Part shown: one piece after another, positions 7,731 to 56,133 of the stretch
How the letters are laid out: each line of letters begins with the position of its first letter
Position numbering within the stretch: the stretch's first letter is position 1
NCBI RefSeq assembly: GCF_044324785.1
Contig: NZ_CP172127.1
Reading direction: 5' to 3' (one strand)
DNA length: 64,000 nt
DNA from: Escherichia coli
GTDB lineage: Bacteria > Pseudomonadota > Gammaproteobacteria > Enterobacterales > Enterobacteriaceae
Program-made: the position numbers and the translations under genes
Notes under the pieces: generated by a model
What the model was told of the DNA's origin: nothing
Database searches by the model: none
What the model saw: only the letters and a program-made list of their open reading frames with translations

Positions 7731-9269
7731 ATGCAACAACCTGTAGTTCGCGTTGGCGAATGGCTTGTTACTCCGTCCATAAACCAAATTAGCCGCAATG
7801 GGCGTCAACTTACCCTTGAGCCGAGATTAATCGATCTTCTGGTTTTCTTTGCTCAACACAGTGGCGAAGTACTTAGCAGGGATGAACTTATCGATAATGT
7901 CTGGAAGAGAAGTATTGTCACCAATCACGTTGTGACGCAGAGTATCTCAGAACTACGTAAGTCATTAAAAGATAATGATGAAGATAGTCCTGTCTATATC
8001 GCTACTGTACCAAAGCGCGGCTATAAATTAATGGTGCCGGTTATCTGGTACAGCGAAGAAGAGGGAGAGGAAATAATGCTATCTTCGCCTCCCCCTATAC
8101 CAGAGGCGGTTCCTGACACAGCTTCTCCCTCCCACAGTCTTAACATTCAAAACACCGCAACACCACCTGAACAATCCCCTGTTAAAAGCAAACGATTCAC
8201 TACCTTTTGGGTATGGTTTTTTTTCCTGTTGTCGTTAGGTATCTGTGTAGCACTGGTAGCGTTTTCAAGTCTTGATACACGTCTTCCTATGAGCAAATCG
8301 CGTATTTTGCTCAATCCACGCGATATTGACATTAATATGGTTAATAAGAGTTGTAACAGCTGGAGTTCTCCGTATCAGCTCTCTTACGCGATAGGCGTGG
8401 GTGATTTGGTGGCGACATCACTTAACACCTTCTCCACCTTTATGGTGCATGACAAAATCAACTACAACATTGATGAACCGAGCAGTTCCGGTAAAACATT
8501 ATCTATTGCGTTTGTTAATCAGCGCCAATACCGTGCTCAACAATGCTTTATGTCGGTAAAATTGGTAGACAATGCAGATGGTTCAACCATGCTGGATAAA
8601 CGTTATGTCATCACTAACGGTAATCAGCTGGCGATTCAAAATGATTTACTCCAGAGTTTATCAAAAGCGTTAAACCAACCATGGCCACAACGAATGCAGG
8701 AGATGCTCCAGCAAATTTTGCCGCATCGTGGTGCGTTATTAACTAATTTTTATCAGGCACATGATTATTTACTGCATGGTGATGATAAATCATTGGATCG
8801 TGCCAGTGAATTATTAGGTGAGATTGTTCAATCATCCCCAGAATTTACCTACGCGAGAGCAGAAAAAGCATTAGTTGATATCGTGCGCCATTCTCAACAT
8901 CCTTTAGCCGAAAAACAATTAGCAGCACTGAACACAGAAATAGATAACATTGTTACACTGCCGGAATTGAACAACCTGTCCATTATATATCAAATAAAAG
9001 CGGTCAGTGCCCTGGTAAAAGGTAAAACAGATGAGTCTTATCAGGCGATAAATACTGGCATTGATCTTGAAATGTCCTGGCTAAATTATGTGTTGCTTGG
9101 CAAGGTTTATGAAATGAAGGGGATGAACCGGGAAGCAGCTGATGCATATCTCACCGCCTTTAATTTACGCCCAGGGGCAAACACCCTTTACTGGATTGAA
9201 AATGGTATATTCCAGACTTCTGTTCCTTATGTTGTACCTTATCTCGACAAATTTCTCGCTTCAGAATAA
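7731..9269 (+). CDS. cadC: CadC, membrane-integrated ToxR-like transcriptional activator of the cad operon
   Basis: 512 aa, recognised as E. coli CadC; synteny with cadBA. Confidence 0.95.
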   Translation: MQQPVVRVGEWLVTPSINQISRNGRQLTLEPRLIDLLVFFAQHSGEVLSRDELIDNVWKRSIVTNHVVTQSISELRKSLKDNDEDSPVYIATVPKRGYKLMVPVIWYSEEEGEEIMLSSPPPIPEAVPDTASPSHSLNIQNTATPPEQSPVKSKRFTTFWVWFFFLLSLGICVALVAFSSLDTRLPMSKSRILLNPRDIDINMVNKSCNSWSSPYQLSYAIGVGDLVATSLNTFSTFMVHDKINYNIDEPSSSGKTLSIAFVNQRQYRAQQCFMSVKLVDNADGSTMLDKRYVITNGNQLAIQNDLLQSLSKALNQPWPQRMQEMLQQILPHRGALLTNFYQAHDYLLHGDDKSLDRASELLGEIVQSSPEFTYARAEKALVDIVRHSQHPLAEKQLAALNTEIDNIVTLPELNNLSIIYQIKAVSALVKGKTDESYQAINTGIDLEMSWLNYVLLGKVYEMKGMNREAADAYLTAFNLRPGANTLYWIENGIFQTSVPYVVPYLDKFLASE

Positions 9270-9634
9270 GTAACTCCCGGGTTGATTCATACTCGGGAAT
9301 ATTTGTTGTTGAGCTTTTGTATGTTTCTGTTGGTATAATATGTTGCGGCAATTTATTTGCCGCATAATTTTCATTACATAAATTTAACCAAAGAATGTTC
9401 CGCAATCCATTGTAAACATTGAATGTTTATCTTTTCATGATATCAACTTGCGATCCTGATGTGTTAATAAAAAACCTCAAGTTCTCACTTACAGAAACTT
9501 TTGTGTTATTTCACCTAATCTTTAGGATTAATCCTTTTTTCGTGAGTATTCTTAGCGCCAGTTTGGTCTGGTCAGGAAATAGTTATACATCATGACCCGG
9601 ACTCCAAATTCAAAAATGAAATTAGGAGAAGAGC
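9270..9634 (+). promoter_or_regulatory. Pcad regulatory region (cadBA promoter; CadC and H-NS binding region)
   Basis: AT-rich 365-bp intergenic region between cadC and cadB; site positions not resolved. Confidence 0.5.
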
Positions 9635-10969
9635 ATGAGTTCTGCCAAGAAGATCGGGCTATTTGCCTGTACCGGTGTTGTTGCCGGTAATATGATGGGG
9701 AGCGGTATTGCATTATTACCTGCGAACCTAGCAAGTATCGGTGGTATTGCTATCTGGGGTTGGATTATCTCTATTATTGGTGCAATGTCGCTGGCATATG
9801 TATATGCCCGACTGGCAACAAAAAACCCGCAACAAGGTGGCCCAATTGCTTATGCCGGAGAAATTTCCCCTGCATTTGGTTTTCAGACAGGTGTTCTTTA
9901 TTACCATGCTAACTGGATTGGTAACCTGGCGATTGGTATTACCGCTGTATCTTATCTTTCCACCTTCTTCCCAGTATTAAATGATCCTGTTCCGGCGGGT
10001 ATCGCCTGTATTGCTATCGTCTGGGTATTTACCTTTGTAAATATGCTCGGCGGTACCTGGGTAAGCCGTTTAACCACTATTGGTCTGGTGCTGGTTCTTA
10101 TTCCTGTGGTTATGACTGCTATTGTTGGCTGGCATTGGTTTGATGCTGCGACTTATGCCGCTAACTGGAATACTGCGGATACCACCGATGGTCATGCGAT
10201 CATTAAAAGTATTCTGCTCTGCCTGTGGGCCTTCGTGGGTGTTGAATCCGCAGCTGTAAGTACTGGTATGGTTAAAAACCCGAAACGTACCGTTCCGCTG
10301 GCAACCATGCTGGGTACTGGTTTAGCAGGTATTGTTTATATCGCTGCGACTCAGGTGCTTTCCGGTATGTATCCGTCTTCTGTAATGGCAGCTTCCGGTG
10401 CTCCGTTTGCAATCAGTGCTTCAACTATCCTCGGTAACTGGGCTGCGCCGCTGGTTTCTGCATTCACCGCCTTTGCGTGCCTGACTTCTCTGGGCTCCTG
10501 GATGATGTTGGTAGGCCAGGCAGGTGTACGTGCCGCTAACGACGGTAACTTCCCGAAAGTTTATGGTGAAGTCGACAGCAACGGTATTCCGAAAAAAGGT
10601 CTGCTGCTGGCTGCAGTGAAAATGACTGCCCTGATGATCCTCATCACTCTGATGAACTCTGCCGGTGGTAAAGCATCTGACCTGTTCGGTGAACTGACCG
10701 GTATCGCAGTACTGCTGACTATGCTGCCGTACTTCTACTCTTGCGTTGACCTGATTCGTTTTGAAGGCGTTAACATCCGCAACTTTGTCAGCCTGATCTG
10801 CTCTGTACTGGGTTGCGTGTTCTGCTTCATCGCGCTGATGGGCGCAAGCTCCTTCGAGCTGGCAGGTACCTTCATCGTCAGCCTGATTATCCTGATGTTC
10901 TACGCTCGCAAAATGCACGAGCGCCAGAGCCACTCAATGGATAACCACACAGCGTCTAACGCACATTAA
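9635..10969 (+). CDS. cadB: Lysine:cadaverine antiporter
   Basis: 444 aa polytopic membrane protein matching CadB. Confidence 0.95.
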   Translation: MSSAKKIGLFACTGVVAGNMMGSGIALLPANLASIGGIAIWGWIISIIGAMSLAYVYARLATKNPQQGGPIAYAGEISPAFGFQTGVLYYHANWIGNLAIGITAVSYLSTFFPVLNDPVPAGIACIAIVWVFTFVNMLGGTWVSRLTTIGLVLVLIPVVMTAIVGWHWFDAATYAANWNTADTTDGHAIIKSILLCLWAFVGVESAAVSTGMVKNPKRTVPLATMLGTGLAGIVYIAATQVLSGMYPSSVMAASGAPFAISASTILGNWAAPLVSAFTAFACLTSLGSWMMLVGQAGVRAANDGNFPKVYGEVDSNGIPKKGLLLAAVKMTALMILITLMNSAGGKASDLFGELTGIAVLLTMLPYFYSCVDLIRFEGVNIRNFVSLICSVLGCVFCFIALMGASSFELAGTFIVSLIILMFYARKMHERQSHSMDNHTASNAH

Positions 10970-29914: not shown

Positions 29915-30105
29915 GCCTGTTATTTATCCTTTTTTTAGCCTGTAAAAAAATATGTACATGAGAAATTACTATAAAAATTTGTAATATTAGTAAAACTCGT
30001 TATTTTTATGCATGTTTATATTCATCATACAATTATATAACCATTTCCCGGTATCGCTTCGCTTTAGCGAGAACTGGTCTTTTATTCGCACTCAGGAGTA
30101 CATGT

Positions 30106-53220: not shown

Positions 53221-53550
53221 TCACCGCCCATACTCATCTTCCATTCTCCGCTCTTCATCCTCCAGTTGCCGACGCTCCTGATCAAGCTGGCGCTGGCGAT
53301 CGTCCAGCTGCCTGCGGCGATCTTCAAACTGGCGGCGGCGATCGTCATATTGTCTGCGCCGATCGTCGTTCACTTCACGCTGCCAGCCGTCGTCGCGCGA
53401 ATCTTCATAGTCTCGCCCACGGTCAGGGTTATAAGCATCGTTAATCGCCTGCTGAATATTGCCAATGGTGTCGTCGATAATATCGGCCTGGGCCGGAACG
53501 GTGGACAGCGTGAGCAGGGTGAATAAAAGAAATAGCGGAAAACGTTTCAT
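53221..53550 (-). CDS. yjdP: Secreted Arg/Asp-rich protein YjdP
   Basis: 109 aa with signal peptide and DRRRQ repeats. Confidence 0.8.
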   Translation of the reverse strand: MKRFPLFLLFTLLTLSTVPAQADIIDDTIGNIQQAINDAYNPDRGRDYEDSRDDGWQREVNDDRRRQYDDRRRQFEDRRRQLDDRQRQLDQERRQLEDEERRMEDEYGR

Positions 53551-53618
53551 TAGCCAACCTCAAAAAGAAACTCTATCCACATTAGTCATTACTCATCCAT
53601 GCAAGTAGTGGATGAATC

Positions 53619-53814
53619 TCAATTTCTCCGCTGCTCTATTGCCGTAATCGCCTCCACGCGTTGTTGATGACGACCGCCTTCGTACTGCGCGCCCAGCCAC
53701 GCATCCACAATCATTTTTGCCAGTTCGAGGCCAACCACTCGTGAACCAAAAGCCAGTGCAACTTCACTGGCGTAATGCGGATAATCAGTGCGCTCTGACG
53801 ACCTGGTTCTTTAT
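53619..53814 (-). pseudogene. rpiB: Degenerate remnant of rpiB (ribose-5-phosphate isomerase B)
   Basis: Minus-strand translation gives SSERTDYPHYASEVALA fused to FGSRVVGLELAKMIVDAWLGAQYEGGRHQQRVEAITAIEQRRN-stop, matching RpiB N- and C-terminal segments as I recall them with the catalytic middle missing; upstream frame is closed. Confidence 0.45.
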
Positions 53815-54147
53815 CAATCCCCTCACTCATTGACCATAAATACAAGGCTGGCACAGCAACGCGGAATCCTGCGGTGCCAGCGACATGACCGCCCATTGCT
53901 CCGGTACTTTTTTTAAAAAGAAACATCGGTTGCATTGATAAATATATAAAACACCTCATATTATTTACGGAGATAATAAATTCGCGTGCTTTTCCCTCTT
54001 CAGCACAAATGCCTAATAAAATGGCTCGTTCCGCTCACACTTCCACTTATTAAAGTCGCAATTTCCCAATTATGATAACGCCAGCTTTAAATGACGTATT
54101 TTGCATGGGTTACATATTTACGACACAAATGATAAATGGAGATTTAT

Positions 54148-56133
54148 ATGAATAACTCTCGGTTATTCCGTTTGAGCAGGATTGTTATTGCGTTAACTGC
54201 CGCCAGCGGCATGATGGTAAATACCGCTTACGCAACAGATGAAGCGAAAGCCGCCACTCAATATACCCAACAGATTAATCAGAATTACGCCAAATCATTA
54301 CCGTTTAGCGATCGTCAGGATTTTGACGATGCCCAGCGTGGATTTATCGCCCCGCTGCTGGATGAAGGTATTCTGCGTGATGCGAACGGTAAAGTTTACT
54401 ACCGCGCAGACGACTACAAATTTGATATTAATGCCGCTGCGCCGGAAACCGTAAACCCCAGCCTGTGGCGTCAGTCGCAGATCAACGGCATTTCTGGCCT
54501 GTTCAAAGTCACCGATAAAATGTATCAGGTGCGCGGCCAGGATATCTCTAACATTACATTTGTAGAAGGCGAGAAAGGCATTATTGTTATCGACCCGCTG
54601 GTGACGCCGCCTGCCGCAAAAGCCGCACTTGACCTTTACTTCCAGCATCGTCCGCAAAAACCGATTGTTGCTGTGATTTACACCCACAGCCACGCCGACC
54701 ATTATGGCGGTGTGAAAGGCATTATCTCTGAAGCGGATGTTAAATCCGGCAAAGTGCAGGTGATCGCTCCGGCAGGCTTTATGGACGAAGCCATCAGCGA
54801 AAACGTGCTGGCGGGTAACATCATGAGCCGCCGTGCGCTCTACTCTTACGGTCTGTTACTGCCGCACAACGCGCAAGGCAACGTGGGCAACGGCCTGGGC
54901 GTGACGCTGGCAACCGGCGACCCGAGCATTATTGCACCGACTAAAACTATCGTCAGAACTGGCGAGAAGATGATTATCGACGGCCTGGAATTTGACTTCC
55001 TGATGACTCCGGGTAGCGAAGCGCCAGCCGAAATGCACTTCTACATTCCGGCCCTGAAAGCCCTGTGTACCGCCGAGAACGCCACGCATACCCTGCACAA
55101 CTTCTACACTCTGCGCGGCGCGAAAACCCGCGATACCAGCAAGTGGACCGAGTACCTGAACGAAACGCTGGATATGTGGGGTAACGACGCGGAAGTACTG
55201 TTTATGCCGCACACCTGGCCGGTCTGGGGCAATAAGCATATCAATGATTATATTGGTAAATATCGCGATACTATCAAGTACATTCACGACCAGACCCTGC
55301 ACCTGGCGAACCAGGGCTACACCATGAATGAAATCGGCGACATGATTAAGCTACCGCCTGCGCTTGCCAATAACTGGGCCAGCCGCGGCTATTACGGTTC
55401 TGTCAGCCACAACGCCCGCGCGGTGTATAACTTCTATCTTGGCTATTACGACGGTAACCCGGCTAACCTGCATCCATATGGTCAGGTGGAGATGGGTAAA
55501 CGTTACGTGCAGGCTCTGGGCGGTTCTGCCCGCGTCATCAACCTGGCGAAAGAAGCGAACAAGCAAGGTGATTATCGCTGGTCGGCAGAACTGCTGAAAC
55601 AGGTGATTGCCGCCAACCCTGGTGACCAGGTCGCGAAGAATCTGCAAGCGAATAACTTTGAACAGCTGGGCTATCAGGCCGAGTCCGCCACCTGGCGCGG
55701 TTTCTACCTGACCGGCGCGAAAGAGCTGCGCGAAGGGGTGCATAAATTCAGCCACGGCACCACCGGTTCCCCGGACACCATTCGCGGAATGTCGGTCGAA
55801 ATGCTGTTCGACTTTATGTCCGTTCGCCTCGATAGCGCGAAAGCCGCGGGTAAAAATATCAGCCTGAACTTCAATATGAGCAACGGCGATAACCTCAACC
55901 TGACGCTGAACGATAGCGTGCTTAACTACCGTAAAACGCTGCAACCGCAAGCCGACGCCTCTTTCTACATCAGCCGTGAAGATCTGCACGCCGTGCTGAC
56001 CGGACAAGTCAAAATGGCGGATCTGGTAAAAGCGAAGAAAGCCAAAATTATTGGCAATGGCGCGAAACTGGAAGAAATTATTGCCTGTCTGGATAATTTC
56101 GATTTGTGGGTGAATATCGTAACCCCAAATTAA
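54148..56133 (+). CDS. yjcS: Putative alkyl/aryl-sulfatase YjcS (MBL fold)
   Basis: 661 aa from MNNSRLFRL with signal peptide; HSHADH motif. Confidence 0.85.

Follow-up and report, generated by a model that had tools for sequence, protein, structure and literature searches.

The yjdP–yjcS region

The window, which is the whole stretch of 64,000 nucleotides of Escherichia coli DNA that was analysed, has phnN-phnO-phnP on the plus strand, then yjdP on the minus strand, a non-coding gap, and yjcS on the plus strand, and the arrangement in strain MG1655 is the reverse complement of this (Table 1). The K-12 locus holds rpiB, rpiR (alsR), and alsBACEK between yjdP and yjcS, as the preliminary description of this DNA had it. 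The same description put about 585 bp between the flanking genes here, in agreement with a measured gap of 585–597 bp, where K-12 has 7.3 kb. The start codon of yjdP is at 53550, while that of yjcS is either at 54148 (the K-12/PGAP start, by homology) or at an upstream in-frame ATG at 54136. The YjcS protein has the Pfam Lactamase_B/Alkyl_sulf domains.

When the gap, here called the scar, is aligned with the MG1655 interval between yjdP and yjcS, both flanking genes and both ends of the intervening cluster are collinear with it. On the left, 53418–53756, covering yjdP and the last 138 nt of rpiB, is 98.5% identical to K-12 by blastn, and on the right the sequence from 53938 onward is 94.8–96.8% identical by blastn to the K-12 alsK-yjcS spacer and yjcS. 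A search of the gap against Rfam returned zero families at E ≤ 1, and a scan of the gap found promoter-like and terminator-like sites in numbers no greater than in shuffled sequences.

There are differences in yjdP itself between lineages. The gene is 357 nt in the B2 strain C31 (L003 12001–12357) and 330 nt in the window, and identity between the window copy and that of O157 Sakai is only about 85%. The divergence of this small gene, which adjoins a hotspot, is unusual.

Table 1. Features of the yjdP–yjcS region, in window coordinates; L002 is the K-12 locus.
Feature	Position	Strand	Basis
yjdP, DDRRRQL-repeat protein, left flank	53221..53550	-	109-aa ORF; name as in homologous E. coli loci
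rpiB 3' remnant, codons 105–149 and stop (53619–53621)	53619..53756	-	blastn to K-12 L002 10663–10800, 98.5%; tblastn; Pfam
Internal rpiB deletion junction, 159 bp (53 codons), in-frame, CTGGCT microhomology	53751..53756	-	K-12 comparison; tblastn gap
rpiB middle fragment, codons ~29–53, '..IDKE/TRSSERTDYPHYASEVALA'	53757..53825	-	blastn; alignment with six other scars and full-length rpiB alleles
Large-deletion junction (~6.55 kb), few bases between alsK stop and rpiB codon ~29	53826..53833	.	Sequence comparison
alsK 3' end (last codons and stop, TAA here) and terminator-like hairpin (stem-loop 53847–53881)	53834..53885	+	blastn to K-12 L002 3876–3825
Filler, 52 bp kept of a 78-bp scar-only segment	53886..53937	.	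Absent from K-12, B2, and O157 alleles
40-bp deletion junction between ATTTAT direct repeats, lineage-specific	53937..53938	.	Alignment with six scar alleles; L012 and L013
yjcS upstream region, distal alsK-yjcS intergenic spacer of K-12	53938..54147	+	blastn to K-12 L002 3809 downward
yjcS, alkyl sulfatase, right flank	54148..56133	+	661-aa ORF; named so in homologous loci

The rpiB remnant

Searching the window with K-12 RpiB by tblastn gives a single significant match, residues 35–149 against 53807–53622 on the minus strand (E = 7e-28), in an alignment that carries a single gap of 53 residues. The remaining tblastn hits all have E > 0.4, so that the window contains no second RpiB homologue and no intact rpiB lies elsewhere at this locus. 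The Pfam family LacAB_rpiB (PF02502) is also found, at 45.5 bits against a gathering cut-off of 24.7, but the match covers only positions 102–138 of the 138 in the profile, whereas intact K-12 RpiB spans positions 1–138. A full-length LacAB_rpiB domain is not present.

Two pieces of rpiB make up this match. Residues 105–149, at the 3' end of the gene, are the same as those of K-12 at 45 of 45 positions. The middle fragment is less well conserved, 53747–53825 being 88.8% identical to nt 84–163 of K-12 rpiB by blastn, with the substitutions G34E, W36R, and Q49E. At the junction between the two pieces the sequence CTGGCT encodes Leu-Ala, which corresponds both to L52-A53 and to L105-A106. In K-12 rpiB, GCACTGGCTGTTG and GTGCTGGCTTTTG are 159 bp apart; in the window they are merged into a single hybrid copy, GCACTGGCTTTTG. 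The deletion of 159 bp at this microhomology would be typical of slippage. The minus strand at 53752–53771, across this junction, can also form a hairpin resembling a terminator, after which comes TTTTGGTT (GCCAGTGAAGTTGCACTGGC); with one terminator-like site found in the scan and 1.0 expected, this hairpin is probably fortuitous.

Residues 1–28 and 54–106 of RpiB have no counterpart in the window, and Cys66, His99, and His10 are thus absent. In E. coli RpiB, Cys66 is the catalytic base, and His99 (from the H99N mutant) and His10 (which contacts the phosphate) are active-site residues (PMC4783025). With these three residues gone, isomerisation of sugar phosphates by the remnant is not expected and, judged by its sequence, the remnant cannot be an enzyme. 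In addition, compared with six other scar genomes, a 1 bp deletion (AAA to AA, 53807/53808) frameshifts the rpiB fragment, which puts the frame of the available ATG and the frame of RpiB apart.

The preliminary description had reported similarity to RpiB, with a C-terminus fused in frame to an N-terminal segment, the catalytic middle missing, and the upstream frame broken. The similarity holds by both tblastn and Pfam, the missing middle is the 53-codon deletion that removed Cys66 and His99, and the broken frame is the 1 bp deletion. The fusion is indeed in frame, but the segment that is joined to the C-terminus comprises residues ~29–53, the true N-terminus having been lost.

The alsK end, the filler, and the large deletion

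The other end of the cluster is represented in the scar by the end of alsK, where TTATGG, read on the opposite strand, gives the last alsK codon and stop. This stop and the hairpin that follows it are 73% identical to K-12 in the window, and 79% in strain 1190, and are collinear with the next block in both blastn and global alignment. The alsK-derived hairpin has a predicted energy of -24 kcal/mol (z = -1.25), which is not a stability beyond that of shuffled sequences.

Between the alsK stop and codon ~29 of rpiB there are approximately 8 bases to which neither K-12 flank aligns unambiguously. The large deletion that meets here spans ~3877–10433 of the K-12 locus (L002), taking with it the 5' end and promoter of rpiB, alsR, alsBAC, alsE, and all of alsK except its last codons. 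The total that is missing relative to K-12 is ~6.7 kb. The junction of rpiB codon ~29 with the alsK stop and hairpin, TCAATGAGTGAGG, is the same in all of the scar alleles compared. The lost genes are not found elsewhere in the window: tblastn with the K-12 proteins detects no homologue of AlsK, AlsE, AlsC, AlsB, or AlsR in the 64 kb, and AlsA matches only the ABC ATPases of phn, generically, at 25–30%. The window therefore does not have an als+ locus, which is taken here as one with alsR, alsB, alsA, alsC, alsE, and alsK present.

The filler is specific to scar alleles. Of its 78 bp, the 26 bp that are not in the window were lost with a 40 bp deletion. Comparison with the K-12 and B2 alleles and with the O157-type island gave no source for it, and it matches nothing outside the scar alleles. 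Across the scar interior (53826–53937) as a whole, the homology to the alsK terminator is the sole match to these same three alleles. The minus strand of the filler provides the ATG (53933–53935) of a 105 aa ORF that is annotated in other E. coli.

Alleles of the site in E. coli

The scar is present in 1567 of 5426 complete RefSeq E. coli genomes, with at least 80% cover of an 1180 bp query. The 78 bp filler, searched for in the same genomes, is in 1569–1570, always in single copy and always beneath an annotated RpiB-family CDS. The full 6.9 kb rpiB-alsK stretch is in 3367 genomes, at a median of one place and a maximum of two, and an unrelated 9.2 kb sugar-utilisation island of O157 type is found at the yjdP–yjcS site in 411. 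The als+ allele thus accounts for 62% of genomes, the scar for 29%, and the O157-type island for 7.6%, the three together making up 98.5%. Among the scar-type matches listed (H48–H55), K-12 rpiB is matched over the 138 nt remnant only, at one place in each genome, and a second copy of rpiB is not evident in them.

Six scar genomes were fetched from across the range of identity (strains 1190, 1424KP, 1919D62, 2014C-3061, 2014C-3051, and FDAARGOS_944). All six (L001, L005–L009) have the same 159 bp CTGGCT junction as the window. The scar alleles of other E. coli share with the window the deletion junctions, the filler, and the hairpin remnant, with 96–99% nucleotide identity, and the window differs from them in one missing A, which is the frameshift, in 40 bp missing upstream of the ORF, and in four private substitutions.

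One of the six, strain 1919D62 (L006 599–916), is identical to K-12 over rpiB codons 30–53, without the G34E/D, W36R, and Q49E of the other scars. Its yjcS-proximal spacer is of a distinct haplotype, and its yjcS is a pseudogene with an internal stop. The K-12-like middle fragment and the distinct spacer of this strain suggest that scar alleles are mosaic.

In O157:H7 strain Sakai, what lies between yjdP and yjcS in place of rpiB-als is the island ECs_5067–ECs_5074 (L004 2771–11921, equivalent to 53625–53937 of the window), with one breakpoint at the stop codon of rpiB and the other within the alsK-yjcS spacer. It carries genes for a hybrid sensor kinase/response regulator, a sugar ABC transporter, a class II aldolase, a pfkB-family kinase, and a regulator. 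Unlike the deletion scar, it is a 9.2 kb replacement, and it has no similarity to the scar interior. The position between yjdP and yjcS is a tri-allelic site for sugar modules.

Further decay in the lineage of the window

The 40 bp deletion that is specific to this lineage lies immediately before the ATG of the ORF, and takes out the 26 bp of filler and, from the AT-rich alsK-yjcS spacer, another 14 bp. Its junction is spanned by none of the 5426 complete E. coli genomes. The private substitutions of the window, relative to the six scars, are at positions 53838, 53843, 53863, and 53908, and would all be non-synonymous if the ORF were read (R10S, C25R, F31L, S33L).

It might be supposed that the short gap is an artefact, either of a collapsed or mis-joined contig or, in the case of the frameshift, of a homopolymer error, particularly as short A-runs, such as the one with the frameshift, are well known for sequencing errors. 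However, two independent assemblies have the same 597 bp gap, the same frameshift, and the same 40 bp deletion, base for base. The first (GCA_054216615.1, L012) has 0 mismatches to the window over 7986 bp and the second (GCA_964055045.1, L013) is identical to it through the scar. The exact YjcS protein of the window is indexed in 459 collection blocks, and the architecture of the scar is that of 1569 complete genomes. The identity between independent assemblies indicates that the private changes are not sequencing errors, and an artefactual origin of the region can be set aside as next to impossible. The lineage of the window is simply further along in the decay of a pseudogene.

Beyond the scar, GCA_964055045.1 follows the window without a difference through phnN-yjcS-ytcA and then has 51 clustered mismatches from 57196 onward (L013 6049 onward), in mdtN, where the boundary looks like the edge of a recombination patch inside that gene. 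On the other side of the scar, positions 30000–53200 of the window (23 kb) reach at most 98.6% identity to any of the 5426 complete RefSeq E. coli genomes, and no genome matches at 99% or more. A Shigella origin was considered for the pathway decay and the lack of a match of at least 99%, and was ruled out by intact cadC, cadB, cadA, and lysU. Two ORFs in the window are of the size of IS transposases, and no NCBIfam model matched them.

The 105 aa ORF of other scar alleles

In all six of the scar genomes fetched, PGAP annotates an intact 318 nt CDS of 105 aa as "RpiB/LacA/LacB family sugar-phosphate isomerase", under five distinct protein accessions (including WP_001182929.1 in strain 1190, and WP_001183287.1), and in every other scar genome shown the match is listed under the same RpiB-family name. 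In L001 the ORF is at 1899–2216, which is equivalent to 53619–53935 of the window. Codons 1 to ~38 are derived from the filler and the antisense of the alsK terminator (~30 codons being antisense), and the remainder from the two fragments of RpiB.

This raises the possibility that a small protein is made from the ORF and has taken on a new role other than catalysis, the window having an inactivated copy of the gene. The frame is open in six of six sampled scar genomes, where it is a CDS with five accessions, and the 19 variable sites among the six alleles, 11 non-synonymous and 8 synonymous, are somewhat under the neutral expectation of ~3:1. However, the alleles have diverged so little that an open frame of 105 codons is expected by chance, and the synonymous excess comes mostly from clustered changes in the mosaic allele of strain 1919D62 (L006). 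The native promoter of rpiB is deleted, the promoter scan is at chance level, and no Shine-Dalgarno-like sequence was seen before the ATG on inspection of the sequence. Non-synonymous changes strike the conserved KGTW motif, the catalytic residues are missing from the ORF, and the lineage of the window has lost the frame with no compensating ORF. There is no good evidence for the ORF as a gene, and a functional small protein at this position seems very unlikely.

Equally hard to credit is the more elaborate proposal of a young, expressed fusion micro-protein that is under selection or, more broadly, of a site where the three alleles are kept by balancing or niche-dependent selection. If there were such a micro-protein, the window would document only the loss of its ORF. 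The name given by PGAP to what is a gutted remnant is likely to be over-annotation.

Loss versus gain of the rpiB-als cluster

The outgroups are the two genomes returned by a search of GTDB species representatives with a codon-degenerate RpiB C-terminal motif. One is E. whittamii and the other a further divergent Escherichia, and both have an intact yjdP-rpiB-alsR arrangement with further als genes. The second, L010 (NZ_JAATUR010000012.1), labelled as E. coli strain SCPM-O-B-8794, is only 91.7% identical to K-12 across rpiB-als and has an RpiB with several substitutions; despite its label, it is probably from a different species of Escherichia. With the cluster intact in two divergent Escherichia, the als+ state is the older one at this site.

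The preliminary description had left two possibilities, loss of the cluster or a gain that was never completed. Under the second, the short form would be ancestral, with rpiB-als inserted later in K-12-like strains, and the rpiB-like piece would be primordial or the product of a partial transfer. The site is a hotspot for sugar-module swaps, with an unrelated 9.2 kb island in O157-type strains, and the scar does have a 78 bp segment that als+ alleles lack, both of which could be taken to favour gain. Against this, both extremities of the cluster have left fragments in the scar, correctly ordered and oriented (rpiB codons 29–53 and 105–149 from one, the alsK stop with its hairpin from the other), which argues for loss and not for an unfinished gain. 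The rpiB pieces are moreover split by an internal deletion flanked by microhomology, which is sensible only as the decay of a complete gene, and the two divergent Escherichia have the intact cluster adjoining yjdP. A never-completed gain is largely refuted and can hardly be believed, while the loss proposed as the other possibility stands.

The reading preferred here, with a probability of roughly 0.93, is that the gap is what a deletion of the D-allose regulon has left behind, a scar without function. The ancestor would have had a K-12-like yjdP-rpiB-alsR-alsBACEK-yjcS arrangement. One deletion, of ~6.55 kb from rpiB codon ~29 to the last codons of alsK, is associated with the 78 bp filler, and another is the 159 bp in-frame slippage inside rpiB at CTGGCT. 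Together these two deletions, which are common to all of the scar alleles examined, would have generated the chimeric 105-codon ORF without His10, Cys66, and His99. In the lineage of the window there would then have been the loss of 1 bp from the A-run, the 40 bp deletion by slippage between ATTTAT repeats, and the four private substitutions.

A simple version of this history is not in keeping with the divergence of the parts. Identity to the K-12 and B2 alleles is 73–79% for the alsK segment and 84–89% for the rpiB middle fragment, as against 95–98% for the flanks. With an interior more diverged than its flanks, the scar is not explained by a simple recent deletion in an allele like that of K-12. 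The pattern fits a scar that is old, or that was born in a divergent als haplotype, or that is mosaic through later recombination. The scar shares CGC at Arg40 and GAA at codon 49 with the divergent Escherichia allele (L010), while G34E/D and W36R are specific to the scar and lie in a conserved motif.

Predicted phenotype and comparison with known systems

From the gene content, the strain of the window is predicted to have no uptake or catabolism of D-allose and no RpiB to back up RpiA. It is plausible that rpiA, which itself lies outside the 64 kb window, is the sole ribose-5-phosphate isomerase gene of the strain. K-12 rpiA mutants reportedly recover through mutations in alsR/rpiR, an RpiB bypass that Sørensen and Hove-Jensen are said to have described in 1996. 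With no such bypass here, pentose-phosphate interconversion should depend strictly on rpiA.

The absence of als is a common and already documented presence/absence variant, and in that respect the locus is ordinary and has little importance beyond correct annotation. For annotation it does matter, as a homologous 105 aa ORF is named as an isomerase in ~1,570 genomes although it has no catalytic core, and metabolic reconstructions that count it would err. The locus also illustrates how a sugar-module site can have three alleles and how a pseudogene decays step by step through slippage. What is added here to the known variant is the anatomy of the scar base by base, the frequencies of the alleles, the polarity of the change, the missing catalytic core, and the decay specific to one lineage.

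The closest known system is the D-allose regulon of K-12, rpiB (alsI)-alsR (rpiR)-alsBACEK in the b4083–b4090 region (Kim et al. 1997 and Poulsen et al. 1999, as cited in PMC2808357), which occupies the same site as the scar, between yjdP and yjcS. Compared with it, the scar is without all of the als genes, the rpiB promoter, and residues 1–28 and 54–106 of RpiB, and its frame is broken. The als operon (rpiB, rpiR, alsBACEK) is also absent from EAEC strain 042 (PMC2808357) and from E. coli W (PMC3032704), neither of which uses D-allose as judged by phenotype arrays or growth tests. Their failure on allose is the phenotype predicted for the strain of the window. The papers report the absence of the operon and not the anatomy of a remnant, and the als-negative allele that the two strains carry may be this scar or another one.
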